In this document: positions 16,941 through 63,607 of the stretch, one piece after another
Layout: each line of letters opens with the position of its first letter
How positions within the stretch are numbered: position 1 is the stretch's first letter
IMG/VR virus record: IMGVR_UViG_3300019757_000093
Location: 10,328-74,327 of that record
Length of the DNA stretch: 64,000 nt
Reading direction: 5' to 3' (one strand)
DNA from: a virus
Notes under the pieces: model-generated
Databases searched by the model: none
What the model saw: only the letters and a program-made list of their open reading frames with translations
What the model was told of the DNA's origin: nothing
Program-made: the position numbers and the translations under genes

Positions 16941-16980
16941 CTTAGATATGGACGAATCCATATCTAAGATTTCCTGTCGT
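16941..16980 (+). terminator. Hairpin + TTCCTGTC element
   Basis: CTTAGATATGGA-cgaa-TCCATATCTAAG then ATTTCCTGTCGT. Confidence 0.75.
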
Positions 16981-17013
16981 AGCTAAAATAGATATTTTTT
17001 AAAAAGGTATTAT

Positions 17014-18495
17014 ATGGATAAATTACAAAAAATAAATCTAAAACATAATTATAAATTTAAGTATATTTCTGAAATAAAAAGAAACTGTGATATAATTAAA
17101 TTTATATGTCCGGAACATGGCGAACAAGAAATGAAATATATTAATCATTTAAATAGTCCAACTGGTTGTAAAATATGCAATAATATTATTATATCTCAAA
17201 GAAATTCTAAAAAGAGACCAATTGAAAAAAGCAGATCAATTAGATTAAATAATCTAAATAAAAAATTTAATAAAAAATTTAAATATTTAAATTTAGATAA
17301 TATTACTGATTTTAATAAAGAATTATTAGATATAGAATGTCCAGAACATGGAAAATTTAAAATGGGGTATATTAGACATCTTAATCATAAAACGGGTTGT
17401 CCTATATGTTCGTATAAAATAAATTATCCAAATATTAAAAATATAGAATATTTAAACAATAAAAATTATATTACTAATAACTTTATTCATAATAATATAT
17501 TAGATACTATTGCTATTACTAAATTTTTTAATGTTGGTATAATAAAAATACATAAAATATTAAATAATTTAAAAATTTCGTATAAGAAAAAGATTGGTGG
17601 TAATAGTCAATTAGAACAAGAAGTATTAACTTTTATTAAATCCATATACTCTGGAAAAATAATAACGAACTCTCGAAAAATTATTACTCCACTAGAATTA
17701 GATATTTATATACCAGAATATAATTTGGCTATAGAATTTAATGGTCTTTATTATCATTCATACGGATTAAATAATATTACTGATAAACAAGCTGATTTAA
17801 AATATCAGAGTACTAGACATTTAAATAAGACTAATCTATGCGAAGATAAAAATATAAATTTATTACATATTTTTGAGAATGAATGGTTAGATAATAATAA
17901 GCGAGAAATATGGAAAAGTATTATTAAAAATAAATTAAAAATAAATAATAATAAAATATATGCCAGAAAAACCATTATAAAAGAAGTATCTATTCTAGAT
18001 GCTAGAATATTTCTAGAAGAAAATCATATACAAGGTGCTGGAGCTATTGGTCCTATTAGATATGGTCTATATTTAAATGATACCTTAGTATCAATAATGA
18101 CATTTGGTAAACCTAGATTCAATAAAACTATACCCTTCGAATTAATACGTTTATGTAGTAAAATTAATTATACCGTAGTAGGTGGGGCATCTAGGTTATT
18201 TAAATATTTTAGAAAATACCATCCAGGTGAAATAATATCGTATGCAAATAGAAGATTTGCATTTAAGCATAAGAATATATATAAAACGCTAGGTTTAGAA
18301 GAAGAAGAAGTTACTGTACCAAATATGTTTTATTTTAAAGGAACTTCCGAATTATATAGTAGACATAAATTCCAAAAACATAAATTGATAAATTTTGAGC
18401 ACTATTCAAAAGATAAAAGCGCATTAGAAATTATGATAAATAATGGATATAGAAGAATTTATGATAGTGGTAATTTAAAATTTAAAACTAATTAA
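17014..18495 (+). CDS. Hef-like free-standing homing endonuclease
   Basis: Two CPEHG...GCxxC zinc-ribbon repeats; ELDIYIPEYNLAIEFNGLYYH nuclease core; C-terminal RRIYDSG; very AT-rich. Confidence 0.85.
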   Translation: MDKLQKINLKHNYKFKYISEIKRNCDIIKFICPEHGEQEMKYINHLNSPTGCKICNNIIISQRNSKKRPIEKSRSIRLNNLNKKFNKKFKYLNLDNITDFNKELLDIECPEHGKFKMGYIRHLNHKTGCPICSYKINYPNIKNIEYLNNKNYITNNFIHNNILDTIAITKFFNVGIIKIHKILNNLKISYKKKIGGNSQLEQEVLTFIKSIYSGKIITNSRKIITPLELDIYIPEYNLAIEFNGLYYHSYGLNNITDKQADLKYQSTRHLNKTNLCEDKNINLLHIFENEWLDNNKREIWKSIIKNKLKINNNKIYARKTIIKEVSILDARIFLEENHIQGAGAIGPIRYGLYLNDTLVSIMTFGKPRFNKTIPFELIRLCSKINYTVVGGASRLFKYFRKYHPGEIISYANRRFAFKHKNIYKTLGLEEEEVTVPNMFYFKGTSELYSRHKFQKHKLINFEHYSKDKSALEIMINNGYRRIYDSGNLKFKTN

Positions 18496-18550
18496 AATAT
18501 TCCCTTCGGGGAATATTCCTGTCGTTGAATTTACTTAGAACTAAAACTTA
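18496..18550 (+). promoter_or_regulatory. Hairpin(UUCG)+TTCCTGTC element followed by the AACTAA-AACT-TA promoter motif
   Basis: AATATTCCC-ttcg-GGGAATATT, TTCCTGTC at 18516, AACT at 18539. Confidence 0.75.
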
Positions 18551-18570
18551 TAAAATAAGAAGGATTTGCT

Positions 18571-19035
18571 ATGGCGTTAATGGATTTTAGTCTAGGGGAT
18601 ATTGGTGGACTATTTACTGGTTTAAGAGAAGCAATTACTGGAGAAAAAATAGAAGACCCAGTAGAATTAGCTAAGATAGATTTACAATTACAAGAATTAG
18701 AACGCCTTGCAAATGCTGGTCAAATGGAAGTTAATAAAGTAGAAGCGGCCCATAAATCAATATTTGTAGCTGGTTGGCGCCCCTGGCTCGGCTGGGTATG
18801 TGGAATGTCAATAGCATATAGTTTTATTGGACAACCATTATTAGAATGGGGATTGGTTTTCTTCGATCATCAGATAGCTGTAAAAACAGTAATAGATGGT
18901 TCTATAGTTTGGTCAGAGGGAATAAAAGTACCACAAATAGATTCGGAGAATCTGATGGAATTAACCTTAGGAATGTTAGGTTTAGCTGGACTAAGAACAT
19001 ATGAAAAAACAAAAGGAGTCTCTCGTGAAAGATAA
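18571..19035 (+). CDS. Holin (3TM gene-transfer-release type)
   Basis: FVAGWRPWLGWVCG and GMLGLAGLRTYEK signatures. Confidence 0.85.
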   Translation: MALMDFSLGDIGGLFTGLREAITGEKIEDPVELAKIDLQLQELERLANAGQMEVNKVEAAHKSIFVAGWRPWLGWVCGMSIAYSFIGQPLLEWGLVFFDHQIAVKTVIDGSIVWSEGIKVPQIDSENLMELTLGMLGLAGLRTYEKTKGVSRER

Positions 19036-22786: not shown

Positions 22787-22843
22787 ATTCCCTTCGGGGA
22801 ATATTCCTGTCGTAGTTAAAACGACAGACGGAACAAAGATATA
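22787..22843 (+). promoter_or_regulatory. Hairpin(UUCG)+TTCCTGTC element and AACAAA-GATA-TA promoter motif
   Basis: TTCCTGTC at 22804, AACA at 22832; near-identical to 32886..32925. Confidence 0.75.
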
Positions 22844-22873: not shown

Positions 22874-23926
22874 ATGGCTATAAAAGAAGTTAAAAAGGTT
22901 TTAAATATAGAGAAGGATCTTAGTAGTACGGATTTTATCTCCCAAAAAATGGGGGAAGTTACTAAAAGAATTCAAAATAAGTACTCTGATAAAATTGTAA
23001 AGGTAACCACTTTATGTGTACAGGATAAACAATTAGTTATTTCTTGTACAGAGGAAAGTAAGATATTTATGGGAGCACCAAGTATTGGATTAAACACACC
23101 TCTTGAACTATTAAGCCAACAAGCTTTAAATAGTTTATCTTTAGTAACATTAGATAATGAAATGATTAATACTTACGAATTAATATTAACATTCGATAGT
23201 ACCATTCCAGATTATACCTCGGCTATTAATGCGGCCCAAGCTAAAGCAGATGAAATTTTTGAAGAGAATGATACAAAAATTCCTTTAGTTACAGTAATTG
23301 ATTATAGATGGGGTAATCCAAATAAAACTATTTCCGCTAGTATTTTTGGGGAAGAAGATCCAGAAGGAAAGGTAGTACCATATTTAAATGGAACTGCTAC
23401 TATTAATATTACTGGTGGTAATATTAATGGAGATTTAGGTTTCTTTAATCCTATTAATTTTTATAAAACAGATGCTTTAGTAGCAGATAATGGATTAGAA
23501 TATAAATTATTAATGTTAGATTTTGAAACTCCGGCATATTTAAGTTATATTGAATTAGCTTATGTAGTTAAAGAATTAAATGGAAGAATCCCAAATATAG
23601 CGGAAATTAATAGTACCTCAATTAATGGTGGTCCAGCAGTTAATACTGGGATAGAAATAATTAATGCTTATATATGGGCAAAATATTATCCAAATCATAG
23701 TTTAAAAGTCGCTCCTACTAATAGAGATCAATATTGGACTATTCCTATCAATCCTCTAGAAACTAAAAATAGTTATATAGTATGGGGAGAAGAAACTAAT
23801 CTTTCTTATATGAATACATTTGATACCGGATTAATTGATGTAATTAATGCAGCTGAATTTAAAAATAATGTAAACAGAAATGCTTATGTTAATAAGGTAA
23901 TAGAATATATGAAATCAGTAGGATAA
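22874..23926 (+). CDS. Modular virion protein, paralog 1 (constant N-domain + unknown C-domain)
   Basis: VKVTTLC, LDNEM, AQAKAD and DTKIPLVT.IDYR shared with the other paralogs. Confidence 0.75.
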   Translation: MAIKEVKKVLNIEKDLSSTDFISQKMGEVTKRIQNKYSDKIVKVTTLCVQDKQLVISCTEESKIFMGAPSIGLNTPLELLSQQALNSLSLVTLDNEMINTYELILTFDSTIPDYTSAINAAQAKADEIFEENDTKIPLVTVIDYRWGNPNKTISASIFGEEDPEGKVVPYLNGTATINITGGNINGDLGFFNPINFYKTDALVADNGLEYKLLMLDFETPAYLSYIELAYVVKELNGRIPNIAEINSTSINGGPAVNTGIEIINAYIWAKYYPNHSLKVAPTNRDQYWTIPINPLETKNSYIVWGEETNLSYMNTFDTGLIDVINAAEFKNNVNRNAYVNKVIEYMKSVG

Positions 23927-24606: not shown

Positions 24607-24633
24607 AATCCCCCTTCGGGGGGATTTCCTGTC
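24607..24633 (+). terminator. Hairpin(UUCG)+TTCCTGTC element
   Basis: AATCCCCC-ttcg-GGGGGATT then TCCTGTCGTAG. Confidence 0.75.
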
Positions 24634-24654
24634 GTAGTTTTACTAGATAACTCC

Positions 24655-24756
24655 TGGAAAAATAAGTAAATAGCTGGAGCACTATACTAAGCTATAGCTA
24701 TCTTAAGCTAAGCTATTAGCTTACATACTATACTAAGCTATTTACTTATTTTTCCA
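24655..24756. repeat. 102-bp element with perfect 21-bp terminal inverted repeats enclosing the inverted 48-bp AGCT repeat
   Basis: TGGAAAAATAAGTAAATAGCT ... AGCTATTTACTTATTTTTCCA. Confidence 0.9.
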
Positions 24757-24788: not shown

Positions 24789-24800
24789 AACTAAAACATA
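24789..24800 (+). promoter_or_regulatory. Putative late promoter AACTAA-AACA-TA
   Basis: Motif ends 23 nt before ATG 24823. Confidence 0.65.
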
Positions 24801-24822: not shown

Positions 24823-25680
24823 ATGTTAGATAATTTAAGCTCAGAAGAACTAAATAATATTTATAGTTCGTTAAATCCAGAATTCTTTAGAGATTTTACA
24901 CAAGGCAGATATTTAATAGTTAAAACTGATTTAATTACTATTCCAGAATTAGTCCAATATATTTCTTTAAGAGAATTTTCTGAAAATGATGAGTTCGAGT
25001 TTAGTCATTTTGATATTAGTACTAAAATTGAGGTTGGGGTATTATTTTTTAAGAGGGATCTATTCTTAGTAAAAAAAGCAGATGGGTATTATTTTAATAC
25101 TAAAAAATTATTAGGTTTAAATAAATTCAATACTAAATTAATTAATACTATAAATAATATAAAGGAAATTTATTATCTAGATAGAAATTTAGATACAGGA
25201 ATGGTTAAATTAGAATACTTAGATAATAATACTAAAATTGCTTTAATAGAAGCTTATTTTTATAATAATCATAGGATATTAGATAAAGCGGAACATACAG
25301 AAGTTTACTTACAAAATTTAACTGATATAGATTTTAATAGAAATAAGTTCGTAATAAAAAAGAATATTAAATCATTTATATTAGAAATATTTGGAAATTG
25401 GATAAGTACTAAAAAAGGAAGTATTCCATTTAATTCTGGATATTTTTGTAGTATTAAAGATGCTTTACAAGTAAAGAATGAATCTGTTCGTTTTAATTAT
25501 TTAGAATCGGAAATAAAAGATTTCTTTACAGATTTACAATTGTTATACTCAGATAATCTAGAAGTAAAAGATATTGAATTATATACGGAAGAAGGAAGAA
25601 CGGGTGGAGATACATTAACCGTATCAATTATATTAGAGATATTTGGGGAAGCTGTCCAATTATTAATTAGACCGAGCTAG
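24823..25680 (+). CDS. Baseplate protein with a C-terminal gp25/GPW-like domain
   Basis: ISTKKGSIPFNSGYFCSI resembles the gp25 'T.kGer.f.p.fG' motif. Confidence 0.55.
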   Translation: MLDNLSSEELNNIYSSLNPEFFRDFTQGRYLIVKTDLITIPELVQYISLREFSENDEFEFSHFDISTKIEVGVLFFKRDLFLVKKADGYYFNTKKLLGLNKFNTKLINTINNIKEIYYLDRNLDTGMVKLEYLDNNTKIALIEAYFYNNHRILDKAEHTEVYLQNLTDIDFNRNKFVIKKNIKSFILEIFGNWISTKKGSIPFNSGYFCSIKDALQVKNESVRFNYLESEIKDFFTDLQLLYSDNLEVKDIELYTEEGRTGGDTLTVSIILEIFGEAVQLLIRPS

Positions 25681-25690
25681 AGGAGAAATT

Positions 25691-27247
25691 ATGTTAAGTC
25701 AACTAGGCAAAGGAATATCAGATAGTCCTACTCAATTAAATACTAGTAATCCTGTAGAATATCAATATCAAGTTTACGGAGATTATCTAGGAGCGACTAA
25801 AAGAAATATTCAAAATTATAGTCAGAATCCTGAATTAAGTATTAAATATTTTAAAATAGATATACCAAAGAGTCCAAATATGGATGATACTAATTCAATT
25901 AAGGTTCCAGAATTTAATGCTTATGGAAAAGATTCCGAAGATGATAATAATCAAGAGATATTTAAAGGGACTGGAATAAATCATAGTTATAAAAATAATA
26001 CTTATGATATTTATGAGTTTACTCCAGTAATAGAAATACAACCATTAACATATGAACCAGCAGGAGAGAATTGGATTGGTACTCATAGTAGTATGAGTAT
26101 AATGAGTATCGAAAGACCATCAGTTGGAGACTTATTTACTTTTTATGGAGCTAAAGATGATATTACAGATGGAACAGAAATATTTCAAATATCTGACGTA
26201 AGTTATCAAAGAACTTCTCATGGTTTATTACCATTATATACTTTACAATTCAGGAGTGCCCCACTTACTAAACAGAGTATTAAAGAATTAAATATAAATG
26301 AAGTATTCTTTTTTAGTAATCATTTTAATAAATTTCTAAAAAGCGATTGTTGGGAGAGTAATCAATTTGCCCTAGATTTTTTTAATAAAAAATTAGCTAA
26401 AGATTTTGACGAATTATATTTAAAAGATAAAGGGAAGTACTTATTTAAATCGTGTCCAATGGACCCAAAGAATATTGAGAATAGAACCTTTATGATACCA
26501 ATGGTATTTAATAATACTATTAAAAGATTAAGTTCTTTAATAAAAACTGGGTTTAAACCAGTACTTGATTTTAGTACCAATGTTAGTCTTAATGAATTTT
26601 TAGATGGTAAAAAAAAAGTGGGCTCGGAAAATTTATTTCAATTTTGTATTTACCAAGAACAAGATTTATATAATATATATGCTGGCGCTGGTTATACTGA
26701 TGAAGAAAATCCTGTTCAAGCCCCAGATCCAATACCAGAACATACTATAAATGAAATTAATGATTTAGGAGAAGAGTTTGTAGTTGTAGTTCCAGAAGCT
26801 CCAGGAGAATGGATACCAAAAGAAATAACAGACGAAACAATACCTATTGCTTTTATAGATAAAGATTTTATTACTAAAGATTTTAAAATTATAGATAATC
26901 TTGGAAACGAAAGAAGAACTTATAATTATCAAAAGTATCTAAAATTATGGGAACTTACTAAAAAAATTAAAAAATTATATTATTGTGGAATAGTTGAGGA
27001 ACCAATCGAATTAACTCAATATGATGAAAAGGGAAGAATAGGTAAAACTAGATTCTTTAATTTTTGGAAATGTTCTGGGAGTACAATTGATGGGGATCCA
27101 GATATATTAGAGGCTAATTTAATTAATGTTAAAAATAGTTATAATGCTCATGGAGTAATAAATGACTTTTTGAAAAGAAGAATTATTATTGGAGATTTAG
27201 GTCTACCAAATGTTATATCGTTTCAGTACGGTGTGGCTTATTATTAA
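25691..27247 (+). CDS. Virion structural protein, possibly neck/head-completion
   Basis: RPSVGDLFTF...IFQISDV...LYTLQ resembles T4 gp14-type neck proteins. Confidence 0.4.
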   Translation: MLSQLGKGISDSPTQLNTSNPVEYQYQVYGDYLGATKRNIQNYSQNPELSIKYFKIDIPKSPNMDDTNSIKVPEFNAYGKDSEDDNNQEIFKGTGINHSYKNNTYDIYEFTPVIEIQPLTYEPAGENWIGTHSSMSIMSIERPSVGDLFTFYGAKDDITDGTEIFQISDVSYQRTSHGLLPLYTLQFRSAPLTKQSIKELNINEVFFFSNHFNKFLKSDCWESNQFALDFFNKKLAKDFDELYLKDKGKYLFKSCPMDPKNIENRTFMIPMVFNNTIKRLSSLIKTGFKPVLDFSTNVSLNEFLDGKKKVGSENLFQFCIYQEQDLYNIYAGAGYTDEENPVQAPDPIPEHTINEINDLGEEFVVVVPEAPGEWIPKEITDETIPIAFIDKDFITKDFKIIDNLGNERRTYNYQKYLKLWELTKKIKKLYYCGIVEEPIELTQYDEKGRIGKTRFFNFWKCSGSTIDGDPDILEANLINVKNSYNAHGVINDFLKRRIIIGDLGLPNVISFQYGVAYY

Positions 27248-27259
27248 GAAAGGAAATAT

Positions 27260-29233
27260 ATGATAGATTTACAAGCTTTTGAAGTAGACGCGGCTATTGG
27301 TAACCTGTTTCAGGTACCACAGTTAGCTAAGCTAAATACAAAAGATCAATTAGAAGAAGTTACAAAAACATTCATGAAAGATCTATACTTAGAACAACCA
27401 AGAGAAGTTCAACAATATTTTCGTTATGAATTAAATGATAGAATGGTAACAACTATATTTAGAAATTATGGTATAGACGAGGTATTCTATAAAGATTTAA
27501 ATCCATTACTAACTAGAAATTTAGTTTATTATCTAGAGTATCTTTTTCAAACTAAAGGTTCGTTAGAAACTTTTAATATATTTAATGATTTATTTAGTAC
27601 CTTTTATAATAATATAGATTTTTATAATATATCAGTAACTAAGATTCCCGTTAATTCTGGGAATAATAAATTGGCCTATATGTTAAAGCCATTAAAACTT
27701 ACAGATGATAAGAAACAGGATAAATTTTTTCCTAGTGCTGATATAGATCTTAGTGGGAAATATTTAATGTCTTTAAGTCAATATCAAAATTATCAATTCT
27801 TTCCAGTAGATACTAATATGATTTATATAGATTTTGCTGATAGTTATGGAACTAGTAATAACGAGGATTTCTTTATGCAAGGGATCAGAGCTTATAGTAA
27901 TACTATCCAACAAGGTAAAAGATTTGAATTGATACTAGGTAAGTTAGGATCGTTTGAAAATATTTATATGACCGATATAGAATTAATTATAGAATATTTA
28001 CAAATAAGTCTTATTAGATTAGGGGATGAGAGTTCTCAGAGAAATTATGATTTTAGTACTTCCTCTTTAATTTTTGGAACTACTTTAATTTTTGACGAAG
28101 GAACTGTTCCAGAATTAGAAGGAATACTTAGAGAATATAAAACCGTTAAGACTAATGATAGAAAGGCTATAAGTTCTATTAAAAGAAGATGGCAATTTTT
28201 ATTAAATAGCAATAGAAGTAATAAAAAATTATATGAAAATTTTAATCAACTTGATGATTACATAAAAGAAGAATATCCAAATATATATAAAAATATAGAA
28301 TTATGTACCTCAGTAGATGATTTCATGGACTTATACATTCAATTATATGGAACTGTTTTAAATGTAATAGATAAAGACGATGAGTTTATAGCTCCTTATT
28401 ATAGTGCTTTATTTCAAAATATTATCTCAGGTAATCTTTTTATTAAAAATTTCTTTCAGCCTTTATTTAAAATATTTGTAAAATATTTCTTTCCAGCAAG
28501 TATGGATTATACTCCAATGGTTGGACAAAAAGTAAAGATAAAAGATAAATTTAATGCTATTGCGACTGAAGAATTACTTAGCACTGAACTATTATTAAAT
28601 GAATTTAGTCCTCACTTACATTTTATATCGAATAGACAAATGAAAATATTTATAAAACCAGAGTCTATTATTATATCAAGAATAGATGATATTAGAACTA
28701 TATGTCAGAAAGAAATACTAGAAAATATAGAATTTAAAGAAATATTTAAGAATAGTATTACCTCTAGATTAAGTACTGATTATCAAATAAAGGATAGTGT
28801 TAGTACGTCTTCATTAATGAAGACTTATCTAGATATAAATACTAGAGATAGCTATCGAACTAAGCTAAGCAATTCTACATTTACTAATTATTCTATTAGA
28901 GAAGATACAGTATTTACTACATTTTTACAGAGATTTACAGAAGATAAAAAAATAAGTTCTAGAAACAGAAGTAAACAAATGCCAGTAGATATTTTAATTA
29001 AAACATCGGACGATAATTCTTTAAATGAAAGAATAAATATTACTAGGTCAAAGGGAAGTTTCTACACTCTTGGAATGACAGTAAATGATTTTGAATATCG
29101 TCTAGCTAGAGAAACTGGAATGACCAGCGCTGGTCTTACTCCATTAGAAAATTTTGAAGTACTTAAAAAAGATATTTATCTCTCGAATGATGATACTGTT
29201 TTTGGTAGTACATATAAATGGTTTAACTTTTAG
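27260..29233 (+). CDS. Putative baseplate wedge protein
   Basis: YLFQTKGSLETF resembles the 'ly..KGT..s' motif of gp7/P2-I-like wedges; gene context. Confidence 0.5.
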   Translation: MIDLQAFEVDAAIGNLFQVPQLAKLNTKDQLEEVTKTFMKDLYLEQPREVQQYFRYELNDRMVTTIFRNYGIDEVFYKDLNPLLTRNLVYYLEYLFQTKGSLETFNIFNDLFSTFYNNIDFYNISVTKIPVNSGNNKLAYMLKPLKLTDDKKQDKFFPSADIDLSGKYLMSLSQYQNYQFFPVDTNMIYIDFADSYGTSNNEDFFMQGIRAYSNTIQQGKRFELILGKLGSFENIYMTDIELIIEYLQISLIRLGDESSQRNYDFSTSSLIFGTTLIFDEGTVPELEGILREYKTVKTNDRKAISSIKRRWQFLLNSNRSNKKLYENFNQLDDYIKEEYPNIYKNIELCTSVDDFMDLYIQLYGTVLNVIDKDDEFIAPYYSALFQNIISGNLFIKNFFQPLFKIFVKYFFPASMDYTPMVGQKVKIKDKFNAIATEELLSTELLLNEFSPHLHFISNRQMKIFIKPESIIISRIDDIRTICQKEILENIEFKEIFKNSITSRLSTDYQIKDSVSTSSLMKTYLDINTRDSYRTKLSNSTFTNYSIREDTVFTTFLQRFTEDKKISSRNRSKQMPVDILIKTSDDNSLNERINITRSKGSFYTLGMTVNDFEYRLARETGMTSAGLTPLENFEVLKKDIYLSNDDTVFGSTYKWFNF

Positions 29234-29304
29234 CTAAACTGAACAAGAAAATGATAGAACGAACTAAAAAGAAATAACCCTATAAGGGAAAAGGAAAAAA
29301 GGAA

Positions 29305-30009
29305 ATGGGTAAAATACATAATATTATGCATTTAGATAACTCGGTTTTATCTCCAGAAGATAATACTCACGTAAAGAAAATTGAATGTACTTCAGAAAAA
29401 ACAAGAAGTATAATCGGTTTACCTACGGTATCTGATTTAAACGGAAACGTATTAGCAAAGGAAGAAAACTTAGTTGTATTAAGTGGTAGAGAATTCTTAG
29501 CTCAAAAGCTAGCGGATTTAGCCTTAGATGGGAATGATTTAACAAGTTATCAAATTAGATATTTTGGTATAGGAACTGGTGGTACAGAGGGAACTCCTCC
29601 AAGTACAGTAGGTCCATTCGATACCGATATTGATTTAACTAATAAAGTAAAAATTAGTGTTGGTGGAATTTCTGATCCAGCTAATGACTATAAATATATT
29701 GATGCAGGATATCTTAAAAGAATTAATTCTGATGGTAGTATAGTAATCAATCAAGAAGAACATACTATTAATACAAATTCTGGGCAGGAGGTTGTAAATA
29801 AATTTACTGCTATTACGTTTAATATATTAATTCAAGAAGAAGAACCAGCTGAAAAACCAGTAAAATTTAATGAAGCTTCATTATATGCGGTTAAGTATGT
29901 AGATGGTATTCCAACGGATGATAAAATATTATTTGCAAGATTTACTACATTAGATAAGTACTTAGATCTTAAAGATGGTATTTCTATTGAATGGAATATT
30001 TTAGTATAG
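29305..30009 (+). CDS. Putative baseplate / fibre-attachment protein
   Basis: NLVVLSGRE, YFGIGTGG, NEASLY, LFARFT, IEWNI pattern. Confidence 0.55.
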   Translation: MGKIHNIMHLDNSVLSPEDNTHVKKIECTSEKTRSIIGLPTVSDLNGNVLAKEENLVVLSGREFLAQKLADLALDGNDLTSYQIRYFGIGTGGTEGTPPSTVGPFDTDIDLTNKVKISVGGISDPANDYKYIDAGYLKRINSDGSIVINQEEHTINTNSGQEVVNKFTAITFNILIQEEEPAEKPVKFNEASLYAVKYVDGIPTDDKILFARFTTLDKYLDLKDGISIEWNILV

Positions 30010-30054
30010 GTTTTCCTATCTAATAAATAAAATAAAAAATAAAGGAGGCCTTAT

Positions 30055-32082
30055 ATGGCTACTTATAATATACCAGGTATCACTACAAGTGTTCTGGATA
30101 TCACACACACTACTGCTAGTACAAGTTCTGGTAGATCAGTTCTTATTTCAGGTTTAAGTAAATATGGCGAAGAAGATCTGATGGAATTCTCAGATGCTAC
30201 TATTGTTGATAGTACATTAGGAACAGCTAACTATAAAAAATATGGTTTAGGTATGAAGTATTTAAAAGGGGCTTTAACTAGAACTAATAAAGTTTATTTT
30301 AAAAGATTACTTCCAGATGATGCTACATTTAGTAATGTAAGTATCTCAGAAAATAATGAAATTATTACTCAAGAGAATTTAATCGATACTGGTGCTTTAG
30401 GTGCTACTAACAACGTATTTAATCTTACTGCAAAAGCAAGAGGTAATGGTTACGATAGTCTTTTTGTACAATTTTCTCCAGCGCCAGATTTAGAAAAATT
30501 ATATGCTGATGAAGAGGGAGATTTAAATTATAGATTTAACTTTTTAAGAGCAGATATATTTGAAAATAACAATATTGGATTAAAATCTGTTTCAAGAAGT
30601 ATTTTATTTTCTTTAATTGATGATGATCCTCAAACTGGAGCTCCAATTTTAGATATGAATACATCAAAAGAATTATTTGTAAATCAAAAATTTGCTAATA
30701 ATAATACTTTCTTAGATGCCACTATTCCAGAAGATGTTGTTTCAACACTATATGATCAATTAAGTATAGATGAGATTTGTGCTAAAAATTCTCAAGAAAG
30801 ATTAGTACTTACAGATACAAGTACTGGAACTAACTATGAAATTATTATTAATAAAGAAGAAGGTTTTGAATTAAAAGCTGTTCAAGTTCAAGGTAAGAAT
30901 GAAGAATTTTTAGGTATGGTTACTACTGCTAGTAATGGTGAAGTAATTACTAAAAAATATAAAATCTTTATAGAAGATAAAGCTCTTAAAACAGAAGTTT
31001 ACTATGGAGATAATTCTTCATTCAGTACTCTTAAAATAAATGGAGTAAATGGTTTTTACGATTTATTAATTGATGATTCTGAAGCTTTAGTAAAACAAGT
31101 AATTTCTTTTCCTAGATATGAATTATATAATAAATTAATTGGAAATAAATTTCAATTATCTAGTGGTTCTGATGGAGAAAATTTAATTCTTAATAATAGA
31201 ATTAACTTATATGGTCCAGGTGATACTACTAAGCAAAATGCTAAACAATTATTAATAGATTACTATAATTATACCCCAGACATTAGAGAAGTTATGTATC
31301 CAAAATATGATTTTGATTACCTTCCAGATTGGACTGAAGATGTAGATGTAATGACTGCTATTAGTAATCTTGGGGATGAATTAGGTTTCTCAATGCCGAT
31401 TGTATCTTTAGGAACAAGTCTTTCTAGAGAAGAAGATTATGCTAAGAGAAGAGAAGATTATATTATTAACTCATATAATACTGCTATCTATAGTGGACAA
31501 GATAACCTTGAACATTACGATGAAACTACTGGTGGAACTATAAAAATTCCTCATAGTTATTTAGCAATGTTAATTCATTTAGATGTCGATGATAATTATT
31601 CAATTACTGAACCAGCGGCTAATAAGAATAAAGCAACTATTCCAGATAGTAAAATTAAATTATCTTACCAAGCCACAAGTAAAGATATTGAAGTTCTAAG
31701 AGAAGTTCAAATTAATACAATCATTGATGAAGTTGATGGTATGTATGAAATTGATCAATTAACTGCTTATAAAAAAGCAAGTAAATTATCTAGAATCAAT
31801 ATAGTTAAACCTATTCATAGAATGAGAAAAGATTTACCAAGATTACTTAAAGACTTTATTCAAGTAAAAGCTTTAAATAACCAAATCTCAAAAGTTCAAG
31901 AAATAGTTAATAAATACATGGATAAATATTTAGTATCTGATGATAATATTAGAGATGGTATCTTTAGTACTATTAAAGTTCAAGTGTACTTTATTGAAGA
32001 AGAAAATAAATTAATTGTAAGTATTACAGTTAACCCAATCGGTACTATTGAAACAATTAGTATACCAATTACAGTAATTTAA
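30055..32082 (+). CDS. Contractile tail sheath protein
   Basis: N-terminal PGITTSVLD; C-terminal LSRINI and ITVNPIGTIETISI; 675 aa. Confidence 0.85.
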   Translation: MATYNIPGITTSVLDITHTTASTSSGRSVLISGLSKYGEEDLMEFSDATIVDSTLGTANYKKYGLGMKYLKGALTRTNKVYFKRLLPDDATFSNVSISENNEIITQENLIDTGALGATNNVFNLTAKARGNGYDSLFVQFSPAPDLEKLYADEEGDLNYRFNFLRADIFENNNIGLKSVSRSILFSLIDDDPQTGAPILDMNTSKELFVNQKFANNNTFLDATIPEDVVSTLYDQLSIDEICAKNSQERLVLTDTSTGTNYEIIINKEEGFELKAVQVQGKNEEFLGMVTTASNGEVITKKYKIFIEDKALKTEVYYGDNSSFSTLKINGVNGFYDLLIDDSEALVKQVISFPRYELYNKLIGNKFQLSSGSDGENLILNNRINLYGPGDTTKQNAKQLLIDYYNYTPDIREVMYPKYDFDYLPDWTEDVDVMTAISNLGDELGFSMPIVSLGTSLSREEDYAKRREDYIINSYNTAIYSGQDNLEHYDETTGGTIKIPHSYLAMLIHLDVDDNYSITEPAANKNKATIPDSKIKLSYQATSKDIEVLREVQINTIIDEVDGMYEIDQLTAYKKASKLSRINIVKPIHRMRKDLPRLLKDFIQVKALNNQISKVQEIVNKYMDKYLVSDDNIRDGIFSTIKVQVYFIEEENKLIVSITVNPIGTIETISIPITVI

Positions 32083-32092
32083 GGAGAAGTAA

Positions 32093-32860
32093 ATGGCATT
32101 TAACGCAATCTCATTTAACAATGCAGTTACAAGTAGTTACACAAATAGATATACTGGAGGATCGGACTTAGTTGATAAGGCCAATCCTTTTATTAAAGGT
32201 TATTTTTATGTACTATTTGAGTTACCAGAAATATTTGATGCAGATTCAGATACTACTGGTTCAGATAAAGCAACTTTACAGAAGTTACTTTTAAGTTCAG
32301 CAGAAAGTTTTACCCCACCAGGTGATAGACAATTAAAGACTGAAGATATTCAAGGTATGGGTGGATTAGATAGTTCGTTCGTAACAGGTCAAACTATCGA
32401 TAGAAATTATAGTATTCAATATAAAGATTTCTGGGGAGCTCCAATATTTAGAATCCATAGAAAGTGGACTAATATTATTAATCCATATGCTGGTGGTATG
32501 GTTAAATCAGGAAGTAATAGTTTTCAATCTAAATCTTATAAAGGTAAATGTTGGGTGATCCAAACTAAGCCAGTTGTAGGACAATCTGATACTGTTTATG
32601 AAAAATCAGATATTATTAAAGTAGATTATTTTGATGGTGTATTTCCAAGAAATGATTTAAAAAGTATTTATGATAGTAATATTACAGATAATAGTATTGT
32701 AAGACCAAACATGCAATATTCTTTTGATGGTTTCCCATTAGATGAAACAAACGAACAAGTTCTTACCGCCGCAGTTGCTAAACTAAATGCAGCTATTAAT
32801 AGCGCAAGTTCAAGTTCAAATAGTTATAAAGTTTTCGGTAAATTAGCTGATGACGCATAG
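32093..32860 (+). CDS. Tail tube protein
   Basis: Directly follows the sheath; AESFTPPG, HRKW and FDGVFP pattern. Confidence 0.7.
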   Translation: MAFNAISFNNAVTSSYTNRYTGGSDLVDKANPFIKGYFYVLFELPEIFDADSDTTGSDKATLQKLLLSSAESFTPPGDRQLKTEDIQGMGGLDSSFVTGQTIDRNYSIQYKDFWGAPIFRIHRKWTNIINPYAGGMVKSGSNSFQSKSYKGKCWVIQTKPVVGQSDTVYEKSDIIKVDYFDGVFPRNDLKSIYDSNITDNSIVRPNMQYSFDGFPLDETNEQVLTAAVAKLNAAINSASSSSNSYKVFGKLADDA

Positions 32861-32864
32861 AAAT

Positions 32865-32925
32865 TCTTAGCCTTCTGGCTAAGATTTCCTGTCGTAGTTA
32901 AAACTACAGATGGAACAAAGATATA
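32865..32925 (+). promoter_or_regulatory. Hairpin+TTCCTGTC element and AACAAA-GATA-TA promoter motif
   Basis: TCTTAGCC-ttct-GGCTAAGA, TTCCTGTC at 32886, AACA at 32914. Confidence 0.75.
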
Positions 32926-32954
32926 TCAAAATAATTAAAAACGAAGGAGCTATT

Positions 32955-33981: not shown

Positions 33982-34048
33982 ATCCCCTTCGGGGGATTTC
34001 CTGTCGTAGTTTTAACTAAGTAATCTGGGACTTTAGAACTAAACCATA
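33982..34048 (+). promoter_or_regulatory. Hairpin(UUCG)+TTCCTGTC element and AACTAA-ACCA-TA promoter motif
   Basis: TTCCTGTC at 33998, AACT at 34037. Confidence 0.75.
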
Positions 34049-35420: not shown

Positions 35421-35464
35421 CTAAGAACTAGCTCACTATAGCCAGCTATCTATTAATAGCTATT
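35418..35464. repeat. Degenerate AGCT-rich repeat copy
   Basis: TAGCTAAGAACTAGCTCACTATAGCCAGCTATCTATTAATAGCTATT shares CTAGCTCACTATA with the 26-bp form. Confidence 0.7.
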
Positions 35465-47144: not shown

Positions 47145-47211
47145 ATATTTAGATAAGGATAAACCTTATCTAAATATTCCTGTCGCTCAAATTCATAAGA
47201 ACTAAAAATTA
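47145..47211 (+). promoter_or_regulatory. Hairpin+TTCCTGTC element and AACTAA-AAAT-TA promoter motif
   Basis: ATATTTAGATAAGG/CCTTATCTAAATAT, TTCCTGTC at 47177, AACT at 47200. Confidence 0.75.
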
Positions 47212-47862: not shown

Positions 47863-47913
47863 AAATCCCTTCGGGGATTTTCCTGTCCCAGATTAACGAA
47901 GAACTAAACCTTA
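47863..47913 (+). promoter_or_regulatory. Hairpin(UUCG)+TTCCTGTC element and AACTAA-ACCT-TA promoter motif
   Basis: TTCCTGTC at 47880, AACT at 47902. Confidence 0.75.
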
Positions 47914-50028: not shown

Positions 50029-50054
50029 GCTAATAGCTAGCTCACTATACTAAG
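50029..50054. repeat. AGCT-rich dispersed repeat, 26-bp form
   Basis: Identical to 6441..6466. Confidence 0.9.
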
Positions 50055-50095
50055 CTAAACTATTATTAGCTATTTAATTAAAAAAGGAATAAATA

Positions 50096-50270: not shown

Positions 50271-51005
50271 TTGTCTATTCAAATAAGAAGAAATAACTAT
50301 TTTAAAAAAGCGGAACGTATTCATAAAGATAAATTCTCTTATAATAAAGATAGTTATATTCATTCTAAGAAAAAAATAGAAATCTTCTGTCCAGAACATG
50401 GGAGTTTTTGGCAAAGACCGGATCTTCATTTATCTGGAAAGGGTGGGTGTAGAGGTTGTAATCCTATCAGTGATTATACTTTTAAAAAAGGACATCGCCC
50501 TGCGAATACTCATAACCAGGACGATTTCATAAATAAATGCATAGAAGTTCATGGTAATAGATACGATTACTCGATGGTAATATATAAAAATAGCACTTCC
50601 AAGGTACAAATTATTTGTCCAGAACACGGAAGTTTTTGGCAAAGAGCATCTGATCATAAAAATGGATGTGGCTGCCCAAAATGCTGCGAAAGTAAAGGAG
50701 AAGCTAGAGTTAGAACTTATTTAGAAGAGAATAAAATTTCTTTTAAACAAGAATATAGCTTCTCTAAATTAGGTCTATATAGATTCGATTTTTATTTAGA
50801 AGAATATAATCTCTGTATAGAATATGATGGTCGACAACACTTCGAAGAAGTAGCTTGTTGGGAACCCTTGAGCGAAGTCCAAAAGAGAGACGAGATTAAA
50901 AATAATTATTGTAAACACGAAGGTATAGATTTAATCCGTATCCCTTTTACTAAGTTTAAGTTAATAAAAGAAATTTTAGATAATAAATTAAAGGAATTAA
51001 AATGA
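50271..51005 (+). CDS. Homing endonuclease: CPEHG repeats + PD-(D/E)xK (Vsr/DUF559-like) domain
   Basis: Two CPEHGSFWQR repeats; SKGE, RFDFYL, IEYDGRQH; TTG start. Confidence 0.85.
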   Translation: MSIQIRRNNYFKKAERIHKDKFSYNKDSYIHSKKKIEIFCPEHGSFWQRPDLHLSGKGGCRGCNPISDYTFKKGHRPANTHNQDDFINKCIEVHGNRYDYSMVIYKNSTSKVQIICPEHGSFWQRASDHKNGCGCPKCCESKGEARVRTYLEENKISFKQEYSFSKLGLYRFDFYLEEYNLCIEYDGRQHFEEVACWEPLSEVQKRDEIKNNYCKHEGIDLIRIPFTKFKLIKEILDNKLKELK

Positions 51006-51322
51006 GTACTGTAGCTAGAATAGGAGACCCTTGTTTCGGAATATGTATGTGGCCACCGTAACCTCCGCCATCAGGACCAGGCCCACAACCCTGCAATGGT
51101 ATAATTACTAGTGGAGACCCACAACATTTAAGTGGTAGTACTCCGGTAGCAAGATTAGGTGATTTCGCTTCATTCCCTATTGGACCAGCTCAAATAGTAT
51201 TTGGTACTCCAAATGAATTAAGTGCTGGTCAACCGGTAGCAAGATTAGGAGATTCAGTTTTAGGACCATTAGTAACTTCTGGTATAATTACTGGAGGAAA
51301 TCCTCAGGATATTAGTCTTTAA
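51002..51322 (+). pseudogene. PAAR spike-tip gene with an in-frame TAA at codon 20 (51059..51061)
   Basis: MSTVARIGDPCFGICMWPP*PPPSGPGPQPCNG...PVARLGD...PVARLGD...: three PAAR-type motifs in one frame. Confidence 0.8.
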
Positions 51323-51326: not shown

Positions 51327-51374
51327 AATAGCTTAGCTTAAGATAGCTATAGCTTAGTATAGTGCTCCAGCTAT
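51327..51374. repeat. AGCT-rich dispersed repeat, 48-bp form
   Basis: Identical to 7988..8035. Confidence 0.95.
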
Positions 51375-52544: not shown

Positions 52545-52609
52545 ATCCCTTCGGGGATATTCCTGTCCGTAAAAAAAGACAGGAGTTTGTAAGCTATAAC
52601 AAACCTTTA
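52545..52609 (+). promoter_or_regulatory. Hairpin(UUCG)+TTCCTGTC element and AACAAA-CCTT-TA promoter motif
   Basis: TTCCTGTC at 52560, inverted GACAGGA at 52578, AACA at 52598. Confidence 0.75.
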
Positions 52610-52634
52610 TAATAAAATATTCAAAAGGAAAAGT

Positions 52635-53209: not shown

Positions 53210-54112
53210 ATGAAAAAAACTTTAATAGAACATATAGAAGATTTTAATAAAATACATAATAATAAATATAATTACTCGAAGGTAAATATATTTACTTGGA
53301 AAGGGTATTTAAAAAAGATACCAATAATTTGTCCAGAACATGGTTTATTTTATCAAACTCCTTCCGATCATAAACGTCCAAATGGATGTAAAAATTGTGG
53401 AATAAAAAAAGGAAGTAAAAAGAGAATTATATCTTTTGATAATTTACAAAAAGAATTTAATAAAATACATAAGAATAAATATGATTATTCAAAAGTAAAA
53501 TATAAAAATATTAGTACTAAAATAGATATTATTTGTCCAGAACATGGAGTTTTTTCTCAATTACCTATGTCTCATAAATTAGGATATGGTTGTAATAAAT
53601 GCAGAAAATATACAATATCGAAAGAAAAAATAATTAAACATATAGAAGAATTTAATAAAATACATAAGAATAAATATGATTATTCAAAAGTAAAATATAA
53701 AAATAGTAATACTAAAATAGATATTATTTGTCCAGAACATGGAGTTTTTCGAAAAACTCCAAATGCTCATAAATCAGGGCAGGGTTGTCCAAATTGTAAA
53801 GAATCAAAAGGAGAAACTATTATTAGACATTACTTAGAAGAAAATAATATTTCTTTTAAACAAGAATATAAATTATCAAATAATCAACGTTTTGATTTTT
53901 ATTTAGAAGAATATAACACTATTATCGAATTCGATGGTATTCAACATTTCCAACCAGTAGATTTTTTTGGAGGAAAAGAAGGTTTTATACAAACGAAAGA
54001 AAGAGACATATATAAGAATAATTATTGTAAAGATAATAATATTAAACTTATTAGAATATCCTATAAAGATATAAAAAAAATAAATAATATATTAGAAAAA
54101 GAATTATACTAA
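53210..54112 (+). CDS. Homing endonuclease: three CPEHG repeats + PD-(D/E)xK domain; paralog of 50271
   Basis: ESKGE, RFDFYLEEYN, IEFDGIQH. Confidence 0.85.
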   Translation: MKKTLIEHIEDFNKIHNNKYNYSKVNIFTWKGYLKKIPIICPEHGLFYQTPSDHKRPNGCKNCGIKKGSKKRIISFDNLQKEFNKIHKNKYDYSKVKYKNISTKIDIICPEHGVFSQLPMSHKLGYGCNKCRKYTISKEKIIKHIEEFNKIHKNKYDYSKVKYKNSNTKIDIICPEHGVFRKTPNAHKSGQGCPNCKESKGETIIRHYLEENNISFKQEYKLSNNQRFDFYLEEYNTIIEFDGIQHFQPVDFFGGKEGFIQTKERDIYKNNYCKDNNIKLIRISYKDIKKINNILEKELY

Positions 54113-61337: not shown

Positions 61338-61366
61338 AATGTTGTAGTCAGGGATAAAGGAATAAA

Positions 61367-61966
61367 ATGGAATTGAAAGTAAATAAACAATTAATAATAG
61401 AATCTCTCAATGCTTCGTTAACTACAACCATATTAAAAACAATTAAAGTTAATAATAAAATGCAAAAGAATTACGAGTATTATTTAACAGAACCAGTTGG
61501 TAAAAAGTTCCATAAGGATTTTAATCCAGAATTAACTCCAAAAGAAATGATGGAAACTGGTATCTTTGGTGGAAAATATTTTAATGATGTAAGTCAAACG
61601 AATGAATATCCAAAAGATTGGTGGTCTAAAGCTATTCTTAGCGGACAACAAAATAAATCTAATTATAAATTAAATTATTTTCAAGTCCCAGCTAGTTTAT
61701 CCTTAAAAGAATGGAAAAGAAAAAAATGGATTCATCCAGATGATCCAAGAGGTTGGGTTGAATGGTATTTTAGATATTATATGGGTAGAAGACATGAAGA
61801 TGACGAGAGACAAATTAAAAGATGGAAGAATGCTAAAAGGCATTTACAAGCAGCCCTAACTTACCAAAAGAAAAATGATGGTAAGCAATCTCTAGCCAGA
61901 TTACAAACTATGCTTCATTGGGCATATGATGTAAGAAAAGAAAAAAAGATTAAGAAGGATAAATAA
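61367..61966 (+). CDS. Conserved uncharacterised domain fused to a MELKVNKQLIIE leader
   Basis: LTPKEM..GIFGGKYF, DPRGWVEWYFRYYMGRR and DERQIKRW recall a widespread Trp/Arg-rich family of unknown function. Confidence 0.7.
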   Translation: MELKVNKQLIIESLNASLTTTILKTIKVNNKMQKNYEYYLTEPVGKKFHKDFNPELTPKEMMETGIFGGKYFNDVSQTNEYPKDWWSKAILSGQQNKSNYKLNYFQVPASLSLKEWKRKKWIHPDDPRGWVEWYFRYYMGRRHEDDERQIKRWKNAKRHLQAALTYQKKNDGKQSLARLQTMLHWAYDVRKEKKIKKDK

Positions 61967-62286
61967 TGGCTGCTAACCAGGACTGGAGAAAAACCAGAGA
62001 ATATAGAAAATGGAGAGTAGCTGTTATCCGAAGAGATAAGAGCTGCTTATTATGTAAAAGTACTAAAAGTAGAAATGCTCATCATGTAGAAAATGGAAGT
62101 TATCATCCAGAAGGAAGATTTGATGTAGATAATGGAGTAACTCTTTGTCGAGCATGTCATACAGCTTTTCATTGTGATTTTAAAAGAAGTTTTAGACAGA
62201 AATGTACTAAAGATGATTGGAATAATTTTGCTAAATTATGTAATTATCTAAGAACTAAAGATTTAATCGAATTAGATTTTAAATAA
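61966..62286 (+). CDS. Small HNH endonuclease
   Basis: RDKSCLLC, AHH, DNGVTLCRACH. Confidence 0.85.
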   Translation: MAANQDWRKTREYRKWRVAVIRRDKSCLLCKSTKSRNAHHVENGSYHPEGRFDVDNGVTLCRACHTAFHCDFKRSFRQKCTKDDWNNFAKLCNYLRTKDLIELDFK

Positions 62287-62345
62287 AAATTTATAGCTAC
62301 CTTAGGATAGTATAGAAAATTTATTAAAATGGAAAAAGGTTTAGA

Positions 62346-63071
62346 ATGAATTCAGAAAAATACCAAGCTCCTTTTATTGCGATAGAAGGTTTAGATGGAA
62401 GCGGAAAGAGTTCTCAAGTTGAATTACTTGGGGAATATTTAAAGAATAAAGATAATGGTGTTGTATTATCAAAAGAACCAACGACTGGTCCTATTGGTAC
62501 TTTAGTTAGAGAGATTCTTACTGGAGATAATGTGGTTCAAAATACAACATTAGAATCATTAATGGAATTAGATAGAAAAGAGCATGTGGTTGAAATTGGT
62601 AATAATATTAGCGCTGGTAATATTTATATTACTGATAGATATATATTTAGTGGTTTAGCTTATAATACAAGTGGTAAATCATTAATGAAATTATATCAAG
62701 AAAATAATAGTACTTTATTACCAGAGGTAGTATTCTTTATAGATGTTTCTCCGGAAGAAGCTTTAAATAGAATTAATAAAAGATGTTTTTTAGATGATAC
62801 TAAGCCAGAGATATATGAGAATATATCAAAACTTACAGAAACTAAAAAGAGATTTGATAAAATTATTAATTACTATAATGCGACGAATTTATGTAATATT
62901 ATTAGAATTGATGGAGAGCAATCTCAAGAAAAGATTCATGAAGATATTAAAAAACATATTCAAGAGTTAGATTATTTTAAAGGAAAGACTCGAGGAAATA
63001 ATCCCGATTTTATTCCCGTAGATGAATTTGCTTATATAGAAGAAGATTTAATACCAGAGGCTAATAAATAA
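62346..63071 (+). CDS. tmk: Thymidylate (dTMP) kinase family protein
   Basis: IEGLDGSGKSSQ P-loop, KEP, DRKEH, TDRYIFSGLAY. Confidence 0.9.
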   Translation: MNSEKYQAPFIAIEGLDGSGKSSQVELLGEYLKNKDNGVVLSKEPTTGPIGTLVREILTGDNVVQNTTLESLMELDRKEHVVEIGNNISAGNIYITDRYIFSGLAYNTSGKSLMKLYQENNSTLLPEVVFFIDVSPEEALNRINKRCFLDDTKPEIYENISKLTETKKRFDKIINYYNATNLCNIIRIDGEQSQEKIHEDIKKHIQELDYFKGKTRGNNPDFIPVDEFAYIEEDLIPEANK

Positions 63072-63093
63072 AAGCCAGGTAAGGAAAATAATA

Positions 63094-63555
63094 ATGGAAA
63101 AATTAAGAAATAGAGAAGTAGGAGTATTTAATTTTAAGAATGGTCTAGAATTTCAAATCAAGGATTTAAAGTTAAGTACCTTATATAATAAAAAAGAGTT
63201 ATCAAATTATTATGATATTTCTTGGTTGTTATGTACTGAAGAACATAAAATGTGGGATCCAGCCTTAGCTATTTTTGGAAATAAATTAGGAATTATGTCC
63301 ATGTGGGGTGGAGTGGACATAATAAATTATCAGTTGGAAATAGATCTTAAATATACTATCAATTTTAAAATTAATCCTAAAGGGGATTGGAAATTAAGTA
63401 TAAACGATAAAGAATTTGAAGGTCGTAGAACTGACTTTACTTTAGATCGAGAGAGTGCTTATTTTGTGTTTGGTGTAGGCCAGGAAAAAGTAAAAACCCC
63501 AGGAAATAAATTAGTTGGATTTTTTGAAGACTATTATATTAAAGAATTTAGATAA
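63094..63555 (+). CDS. Hypothetical beta-rich protein (possibly ConA-like)
   Basis: 153-aa ORF; KLSIND..., FVFGVG, LVGFFED. Confidence 0.6.
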   Translation: MEKLRNREVGVFNFKNGLEFQIKDLKLSTLYNKKELSNYYDISWLLCTEEHKMWDPALAIFGNKLGIMSMWGGVDIINYQLEIDLKYTINFKINPKGDWKLSINDKEFEGRRTDFTLDRESAYFVFGVGQEKVKTPGNKLVGFFEDYYIKEFR

Positions 63556-63607
63556 GGTATATCCTTATCTAAATTCTCCTGTCCTTGGATTTTAGAACAA
63601 AGATATA
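63544..63607 (+). promoter_or_regulatory. Hairpin+(C)TCCTGTC element and AACAAA-GATA-TA promoter motif
   Basis: GAATTTAGATAAGG/CCTTATCTAAATTC, TCCTGTC at 63577, AACA at 63596. Confidence 0.75.

Follow-up and report, generated by a model that had tools for sequence, protein, structure and literature searches.

The window analyzed here is a stretch of 64,000 nucleotides (nt) that comprises bases 10328-74327 of a single 74,327-bp contig (IMG/VR virus record IMGVR_UViG_3300019757_000093; 28% GC), and it represents part of the genome of an uncultured jumbo myovirus of low GC content. At the ends of its late genes we found a recurrent module, in which the fixed tail UUCCUGUC lies directly 3' of an RNA hairpin. 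The order late promoter box, genes, module is repeated ten times over in the window, and a box of the AR9 late-promoter type follows nine of the ten modules. A relaxed search of the window added an eleventh, degenerate module. The features are given below in order of position, with z denoting the folding z of the hairpin.

13064..13103, plus strand: degenerate eleventh module, after gene 12469-13071; hairpin with core GGATTAAGCC/GGCTTAATCC, then UAUUUUCAUGUG; tail variant TCATGTG.
16941..16982, plus strand: module 1, after the major capsid gene (15305-16855); 12-bp stem, CGAA loop, AU-UUCCUGUC-GUAG; -19.5 kcal/mol, z -4.9.
18496..18523, plus strand: module 2, after the HNH homing endonuclease gene (17014-18495); 9-bp stem, cUUCGg loop, CCUGUC tail abutting the stem; z -3.1.
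18539..18550, plus strand: late-promoter-like box AACTAAAACTTA (AAC[AT]AA-N4-TA), 22 nt past module 2.
22787..22815, plus strand: module 3; 6-bp cUUCGg hairpin, AU-UUCCUGUC-GUAG; z -1.3, weak when folded singly.
22832..22843, plus strand: late box past module 3.
24607..24637, plus strand: module 4; 8-bp cUUCGg hairpin, UUCCUGUC-GUAG; z -3.2.
24789..24800, plus strand: late box ~156-162 nt downstream of module 4, with an AGCT-rich box between.
32865..32897, plus strand: module 5, ending the tail-sheath operon (24823-32860); 8-bp stem, UUCU loop, U-UUCCUGUC-GUAG; z -4.2.
32914..32925, plus strand: late box AACAAAGATATA past module 5.
33982..34009, plus strand: module 6; 6-bp cUUCGg hairpin, UUCCUGUC-GUAG; z -1.2.
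34037..34048, plus strand: late box past module 6.
47145..47184, plus strand: module 7; 14-bp stem, UUCCUGUC; z -6.2.
47200..47211, plus strand: late box past module 7.
47863..47887, plus strand: module 8; 7-bp cUUCGg hairpin, UUCCUGUC; z -0.9.
47902..47913, plus strand: late box past module 8.
52545..52567, plus strand: module 9; 5-bp cUUCGg hairpin, A-UUCCUGUC; the minimum free energy favours another fold; z -0.5.
52598..52609, plus strand: late box past module 9.
63543..63583, plus strand: module 10; 15-bp stem whose 5' arm contains the stop codon of gene 63094-63555, CUCCUGUC; z -6.5.
63596..63607, plus strand: late box past module 10.

The mechanical open reading frame (ORF) called from 32910 overlaps the late box past module 5, so the true start of this gene is probably further downstream. 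The tail of module 9 is able to pair with GACAGGA at 52578-52584. Back to back with this module, on the minus strand at 52578-52620, lies an antisense-facing arrangement of a weak 6-bp hairpin (GTTTGT/ACAAAC), TCCTGTC and U7, which may be a stop for antisense transcripts or a mere by-product of the inverted repeat.

An earlier note, made from the letters of this DNA without database searches, had placed TCCTGTC at ten plus-strand sites behind gene ends, and the positions proved exact: every one of the ten is intergenic, lies past a stop codon and has a hairpin 0-3 nt upstream. The count that it had proposed as a check gave 13 copies of TCCTGTC in the window, with all 10 plus-strand copies hairpin-coupled, compared with a mean of 2.9 and a maximum of 8 in dinucleotide-preserving shuffles of the window. 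Similarly, TTCCTGTC was counted 11 times in the window against 1.35 expected. Two of the three minus-strand copies of TCCTGTC lie within ORFs, and the third forms an inverted pair with the 52560 site. There are 0 copies in the first 10.3 kb of the contig or in the minus-strand gene block (window 1-7850); because this block has none, the modules are confined to the structural (late) region on this contig. The six cUUCGg loops and the frequent GTAG continuation described in the earlier note were also borne out, with six such loops and five GTAG tails among the ten modules.

Folding z was -3 or lower at six sites, and the four shortest UUCG hairpins (5-7 bp, ~-8 kcal/mol) gave weak single-fold values from -0.5 to -1.3; the evidential weight of these four is their position. 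UU or UUU, drawn from the stem base and the spacer, precedes CCUGUC; the 2-4 U's ahead of CCUGUC are often paired with an upstream A-run. Five of the 8 nt past the GC core are U and seven are pyrimidines, and for this reason a lax terminator scan flags several modules. The claim that the modules have no U-tract was, therefore, overstated: where an intrinsic terminator has a U-tract of ~7-9 nt, the modules hold 2-4 U's and then CCUGUC. A search of the window with Rfam (gathering threshold) and ARAGORN gave no match, so no known ribozyme, riboswitch or tRNA-like element is present at the modules, and a full-text literature search with the motif string matched only primer and siRNA sequences. Two pairing schemes for the tail were set aside. 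An upstream partner for its CUGU was present in 3-4 folds only and was inconsistent, and pairing with the Shine-Dalgarno sequence farther downstream is hindered by the intervening late promoter, since the tail and the Shine-Dalgarno sequence would not be on one transcript if the module terminates.

A megablast search of 20 kb of the window against INPHARED gave no match, and tblastn with the tail sheath found only Salicola phage SCTP-2 (a 440-kb halophage; 24% identity). For the capsid protein (15305-16855) there were 115 metagenomic homologues, of which a few bore a T4 gp23 Pfam tag; their contigs reach 290 kb, and those of the closest homologues measure 228-290 kb. CheckV puts the completeness of the window's contig at ~26%. 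Seven IMG/VR relatives were taken in, for which a capsid alignment worked as the query and a single-protein query for related loci found nothing. G000 is the window's contig, and G001 (74.5 kb) came from a motif pattern scan and has no capsid match. Capsid identity is 82% for G002 (167 kb), 60% for G003 (272 kb), 58% for G004 (281 kb, complete by CheckV), 50% for G005 (181 kb) and 49% for G006 (226 kb).

The module recurs in five relatives, at capsid identities down to 49%, with unrelated stems and an identical tail, and two relatives carry the one-step tail variants UUCUUGUC and UUUUUGUCGUUAG. Stems and loops have no common sequence between sites or between genomes, so that the earlier observation of varying stems and a constant tail extends from the window to its relatives. 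To describe the tails without a preselected motif, we took all strong hairpins in each genome and counted the 6-mers on their 3' side; genome-wide TTNNTGTCGT counts were uninformative and fail even for phiKZ, and counting was therefore anchored on hairpins. The top 6-mers were CCTGTC, TCCTGT and TTCCTG in G000, G001, G002, G004 and G006, CTTGTC and TCTTGT in G005, and TGTCGT, TTGTCG, TTTGTC and CGTTAG in G003, and the tail 6-mers of G006 were observed 15-19 times against 0.1-0.4 expected. The same pipeline recovered the published tail of phiKZ, TTATGTCGT (top 6-mers TTATGT, TATGTC and TGTCGT), and returned T-rich words only for AR9, phiR1-37 and SPN3US. The copies of TCCTGTC that lie behind a hairpin number 16 of 17 in G002, ~18 of 20 in G006 and ~12 of 26 in G004, whose hairpin flanks hold CCUGUG 12 times and CCUGUC 11 times. 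The CA tail variant of the degenerate eleventh module is also found in G002, as TTCATGTC after hairpins. At one orthologous site, the 3' end of the capsid gene, 6 of 7 relatives have the module with differing stems and the tails TTTCCTGTCG or, in G003, CTTTTTTTGTCGTTAG; the site in G001 that is orthologous to module 10 has a different stem, with G·U.

The consensus that emerges is a hairpin, 2-4 U's and NN-UGUC, then mostly G. The NN before UGU is uniform in each genome, namely CC in five genomes, CU in G005, UU in G003 and UA in phiKZ, and the bases 3' of the tail are lineage-specific (GUAG, GUUAAA or GCnAAAAA). CCTGT is found on both sides of the midpoint root of the capsid tree, and the CU and UU forms thus look derived. 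Because NN is uniform within genomes and changes between lineages, its reader would be lineage-specific and probably phage-encoded. Uniformity within and change between genomes is also what would be expected from a co-evolving binding protein, if the module were an ordinary intrinsic terminator (hairpin plus short U-run) with a separate tag, CCUGUCG, bound by a phage RNA- or DNA-binding protein, e.g. an mRNA 3'-end binding or export factor, an antiterminator or a roadblock. G003 fits this explanation, since a full U7 tract precedes GUCGUUAG there and a conserved box can accordingly lie beyond a complete canonical terminator. However, in most genomes the box replaces U's rather than following them, no conserved box occurs apart from a hairpin in the intergenic DNA of the window, and no candidate protein is known; we regard a separate tag as very unlikely.

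The stems themselves indicate the strand and the molecule in which the signal acts. Among 102 module stems (median length 12 bp), G·U pairs outnumbered A·C mismatches by 26 to 3 (binomial p = 1.5e-5), compared with ~55:45 from base composition alone; these statistics were computed directly on the stems, as their differing lengths and sequences make a MAFFT alignment meaningless. UUCG loops, present in 9 of 117 modules and 18 of 3039 other hairpins, were ~13 times commoner in modules. The signal acts in RNA, on the sense strand. The 99 intergenic modules of seven genomes comprised 96 behind a same-strand gene (81 between tandem same-strand genes and 15 convergent or terminal), 3 antisense and none in the divergent, promoter-like position, a count in which some small opposite-strand ORFs are probably spurious. 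Clear large convergent cases are the G004 capsid gene facing a 734-aa gene, G002 at 162135 and G003 at 53535/53695, and bidirectional modules exist between convergent genes. The module marks 3' ends, not 5' ends. Of the sequence-specific termination or processing signal proposed in the earlier note, these pair and orientation counts uphold a strand-specific, RNA-level signal at 3' ends (in the window, on the plus strand), and its assignment to termination or to processing is a matter of probability.

The same counts bear on whether the module might instead be a promoter or another DNA-level signal, such as an N4-like hairpin promoter, a second promoter class, or a nick, replication or packaging site. 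The virion RNA polymerase (RNAP) of phage N4 uses hairpin promoters and offers a textbook precedent, the motif is upstream of a gene every time in the window, and the phiKZ tail includes the late-promoter core TATG. None of the 99 modules is placed as only a promoter would be, however, and 15 are convergent or terminal. Furthermore, the excess of G·U over A·C on the sense strand argues against a template-strand or double-strand cruciform, and neither the start codon nor the late box lies at a constant distance from the module. A promoter or DNA-level function is, in our judgment, extremely improbable.

A late box was found within 60 nt past 6 of 8 detected modules in the window, compared with 0.06 expected, and an excess of late boxes after modules was also seen in G002, G004, G005 and G006. 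The distance from module to late box was 13-32 nt in six cases and ~156-162 nt in one, in line with the variable spacing noted before. Since this spacing varies and some modules have no box, the tail belongs to the hairpin and not to the promoter. With a new late promoter usually within 13-32 nt, the modules would insulate neighbouring late units.

These promoters also bear on the explanation that the module is an RNA processing or stability site, at which a phage or host endoribonuclease would cut long late transcripts in the single-stranded UCCUGUC(G) beside the hairpin, which would then shield the upstream mRNA from 3' exonucleases. A sense-strand signal at the RNA level fits this explanation equally well, the conservation is sequence-specific and reaches past a U-rich tract to lineage-specific bases downstream, and the very stable cUUCGg loop is a typical feature of hairpins that protect 3' ends. 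In phiKZ, ONT-cappable-seq placed transcript 3' ends at 61 sites with the consensus 5'-BCCYCCCCHWWDGGGRRGGBYTTATKYYGT-3' (Putzeys et al. 2024, PMC10914365), and such 3' ends alone cannot exclude processing. However, a promoter box of their own after 9 of 10 modules would be needless if the downstream genes came from cutting of a polycistron, the modules stand at convergent gene ends and form bidirectional pairs as terminators do, and the tail lies exactly at the position of a terminator U-tract and keeps 2-4 U's. In addition, eight terminators of phage 201phi2-1, which are of several motif types and include some of the phiKZ-like class, halt transcription in uninfected cells when placed in a reporter trap, without phage factors (PMC11512511). 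No candidate nuclease was identified, and we consider processing unlikely.

The relatives encode RNA polymerases of their own. Homologues of the multisubunit RNAP beta and beta' subunits (PF00562, PF00623) were found in two sets, as in phiKZ and AR9, with two beta-like genes each in G002, G003 and G004 and one beta-like match in G006, and tblastn with G004 showed 17 proteins in common with AR9 and 4 with phiKZ. On the basis of these genes and shared proteins, the window and its relatives are assigned to a new, deep clade of phiKZ/AR9-type jumbo phages with predicted virion and non-virion RNAPs of their own, which agrees with the phage-encoded polymerase that the earlier note had invoked. No T7-like single-subunit RNAP (PF00940) was found in five relatives, two of them 97-100% complete, although this is a weak negative, as the controls were silent too. 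The late promoter of the AR9 non-virion RNAP is AACA-N6-TA (PMC5312081), and the AAC[AT]AA-N4-TA boxes upstream of Shine-Dalgarno sequences in the window have its geometry.

Altogether, we think it probable that late units are closed by the modules, each acting as an intrinsic-type terminator that depends on its hairpin, in a jumbo phage with its own multisubunit RNAPs. The sense-strand nascent RNA can form the hairpin, and the next 8-10 nt occupy the usual place of the U-tract; of these, only the first 2-4 are free U's and the rest is the fixed CCUGUC, mostly followed by G. In this mechanism, the distal half of the U-tract would be replaced by a fixed sequence that serves as a sequence-specific pause or release element, located 7-10 nt from the stem, at the point where a canonical terminator has its RNA 3' end. 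The polymerase would halt ~7-10 nt past the stem, and the hairpin would dislodge a transcript held by a short U-rich hybrid; a pause at a fixed distance together with such an upstream hybrid may suffice for the hairpin to drive release. The bacterial consensus pause is G-11 G-10 T-3 G-2 Y-1 G+1 (PMC6062546), and the tail, which has U-G-Y and then G or C, resembles its T-3 G-2 Y-1 G+1 half. CCUGUG in G004 is an exact TGYG match, and the tails of the other genomes match partly; alternatively, the U|G junction before GUC could supply Y-1 G+1 in every lineage. The reader would be phage-encoded and, most simply, the non-virion RNAP itself. The arrangement suggests that these phages' own RNAPs read sequence as well as hairpin when they stop.

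Several points weigh against this reading. Termination is deduced from the anatomy of the modules and the analogy with phiKZ, and the RNAP genes are on the relatives' contigs, with none on the 74-kb fragment that holds the window (~26% complete). The match to the consensus pause is partial, since in most genomes the +1 position after UGU is C rather than G and G-10 is inconstant, and the pause scheme gives no mechanistic explanation of the fixed CC (or CU, UU, UA). The phiKZ tail contains TATG, which is also the core of the phiKZ late promoter, so part of the similarity to phiKZ could have another cause. A fixed tail is no general need of multisubunit phage RNAPs, because AR9, phiR1-37 and SPN3US use U-rich tails, and a phage-specific reader is not required for termination, because 201phi2-1 terminators work with the host RNAP.

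A narrower proposal, which we hold only tentatively, is that the tail is a sequence-specific termination element read by the non-virion RNAP, 'class II-like' for a two-barrel RNAP and co-evolving with the polymerase, as the CC, CU, UU or UA ahead of an invariant UGUC might reflect. If so, the phage enzyme would end late transcripts at sites tuned differently for the host RNAP, and the UGUCGU core in common with phiKZ would be an old contact between polymerase and nucleic acid in this group of phage RNAPs.

Annotation of the module-adjacent genes with PHROG and Pfam mostly gave no family, and the products of the minus-strand block include HD-domain, radical-SAM, NUDIX and ankyrin proteins. The HNH homing endonuclease gene (17014-18495, plus strand; PHROG 3339/559), which is 39% identical to an AR9 gene, lies between the capsid terminator and the next unit; because it is flanked by modules and lacks a good late box, it probably relies on read-through. 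Genes 50271-51005 and 53210-54112 encode treble-clef zinc-finger/DUF723 domains, have AR9 homologues and are mobile-endonuclease-like. Genes 22874-23926, 32910-33977 and 63629-64000 (running off the window end) and G001:74160-74566 are paralogous, and their upstream cassettes are near-identical: a module, GTAGTTAAAAC.ACAGA.GG and the late box AACAAAGATATATC. The contigs G000 and G001 break at the same point inside a copy of this paralogue (91% identity over the last 407 nt), and their ends are probably assembly breaks at the paralogue repeat rather than genome ends. At 51002-51322 on the plus strand, within a 424-nt gap in the ORF list, a small ORF that carries no annotation encodes a PAAR motif (PF05488, E 1e-7, residues encoded by 51062-51319). 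An in-frame TAA at 51059-51061 splits the motif from the ATG at 51002, which could reflect a pseudogene, a sequencing error or read-through.

The AGCT-rich box between module 4 and its late box belongs to a set of hairpin-forming boxes of ~27 nt, with a T7/SP6-promoter-like core (AGCTAGCTCACTATACTAAGCT or AGCTGGAGCACTATACTAAGCTATAGC), that stand at gene-block junctions in both orientations. Copies are present at 6445-6471 (plus), 8009-8035 (minus), 24670-24696 (plus), 35424-35450 (plus), 50033-50059 (plus) and 51348-51374 (minus), and a further copy lies ~2550 nt before the window start (contig ~7775). The copies are common to G001 at 84-100% identity, and G002 has another palindromic box (AACTATTAATAGTTAACTATT) at similar places; the AGCT-rich box may be an early (virion RNAP) promoter or an operator class. 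Also before the window, by ~3.2-3.9 kb, contig positions 6414-7124 in the minus-strand block form a stretch of 711 nt without an ORF of at least 50 aa, between two minus-strand genes and beside a 1396-aa protein without a Pfam family.

The module appears to be a real, lineage-specific terminator code of an uncultured jumbo-phage clade and a version of the motif already mapped in phiKZ, a conclusion that the sequence comparisons support well. As the motif is more sharply defined than that of phiKZ, this clade is useful for asking what RNAPs read when they stop. It provides a natural experiment of more than 100 terminators with freely varying stems and an almost invariant 7-8-nt tail, in which sister lineages differ at only two positions of the tail and others have gone back to plain U-tracts; this variation singles out UGUC and the two preceding bases as candidate determinants. 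To our knowledge, published descriptions of the phiKZ terminator motif go no further than a logo. As of 2022, no structural aspect of initiation, elongation or termination had been defined for a split-subunit jumbo-phage RNAP (PMC9209446). The module would also supply a simple sequence rule for the ends of late transcription units across a large uncultured jumbo-phage clade and, if the tail is polymerase-specific, a compact orthogonal terminator part.

Finally, we compared the module with known systems. Like a bacterial intrinsic terminator, it has a GC-containing hairpin, a frequent upstream A-run and then U's, and stands in the sense orientation at operon 3' ends, sometimes bidirectionally. 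Unlike one, it has only 2-4 U's before an invariant CCUGUC, which would place three G/C pairs in the hybrid, and its tail is sequence-conserved across genomes, whereas a plain U-tract is not. The earlier note had drawn an analogy with the T7 class II signal (ATCTGTT), which is likewise short and sequence-specific and contains CUGU. That signal, however, belongs to a single-subunit RNAP and works without a hairpin, 6-8 nt ahead of the point where transcription stops; identity with it was rejected, as PF00940 had no match in five relatives, the tail agrees with ATCTGTT at only 4 of 7 positions and a hairpin accompanies the tail in every module. The virion RNAP of Thermus phage P23-45 is associated with a 26-nt motif at seven termination sites, from which its authors infer an unusual termination mechanism (PMC10770324). 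It resembles the present case as a phage-encoded non-canonical RNAP with a conserved sequence at mapped termination sites, and differs, in a comparison made by description only, in being a tape-measure-fused two-barrel enzyme that serves early rather than late genes and in having a longer motif. AR9, phiR1-37 and SPN3US have the same kind of transcription machinery, with multisubunit phage RNAPs, and AR9 also shares the late-promoter geometry and the larger number of proteins; nevertheless, these three phages have plain T-rich tails behind strong hairpins and no enriched fixed G/C-containing tail.

The closest known system is the terminator motif of phiKZ and 201phi2-1, a hairpin followed by TTATKYYGT; the main terminator motif of 201phi2-1 (motif A) strongly resembles that of phiKZ (PMC11512511). 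The two systems differ in that phiKZ conserves the hairpin sequence (CCYCCCC/GGGRRGG) and has a loose tail (41-55% conservation at the positions after TTAT), whereas the window's clade combines a nearly invariant tail with stems that bear no relation to one another. UA stands before UGU in phiKZ and CC here, i.e., TTAT against TTCC, and very few proteins are common to both (the 4 tblastn matches of G004). The phiKZ motif has mapped RNA 3' ends, and the modules of the window's clade are known from sequence alone. Both are found in jumbo phages with their own multisubunit RNAPs, seen for the window's clade in its relatives, and both have a hairpin, a short U-rich stretch and a fixed G/C-containing sequence in place of a long U-tract, with bidirectional cases between convergent genes. 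The module, therefore, does have a published precedent (PMC10914365, PMC11512511), and it has the same UGUCGU core as phiKZ at the same offset from the stem: TTATGTCGT in phiKZ, TTCCTGTCGT here and TTTTTGTCGTTAG in G003.

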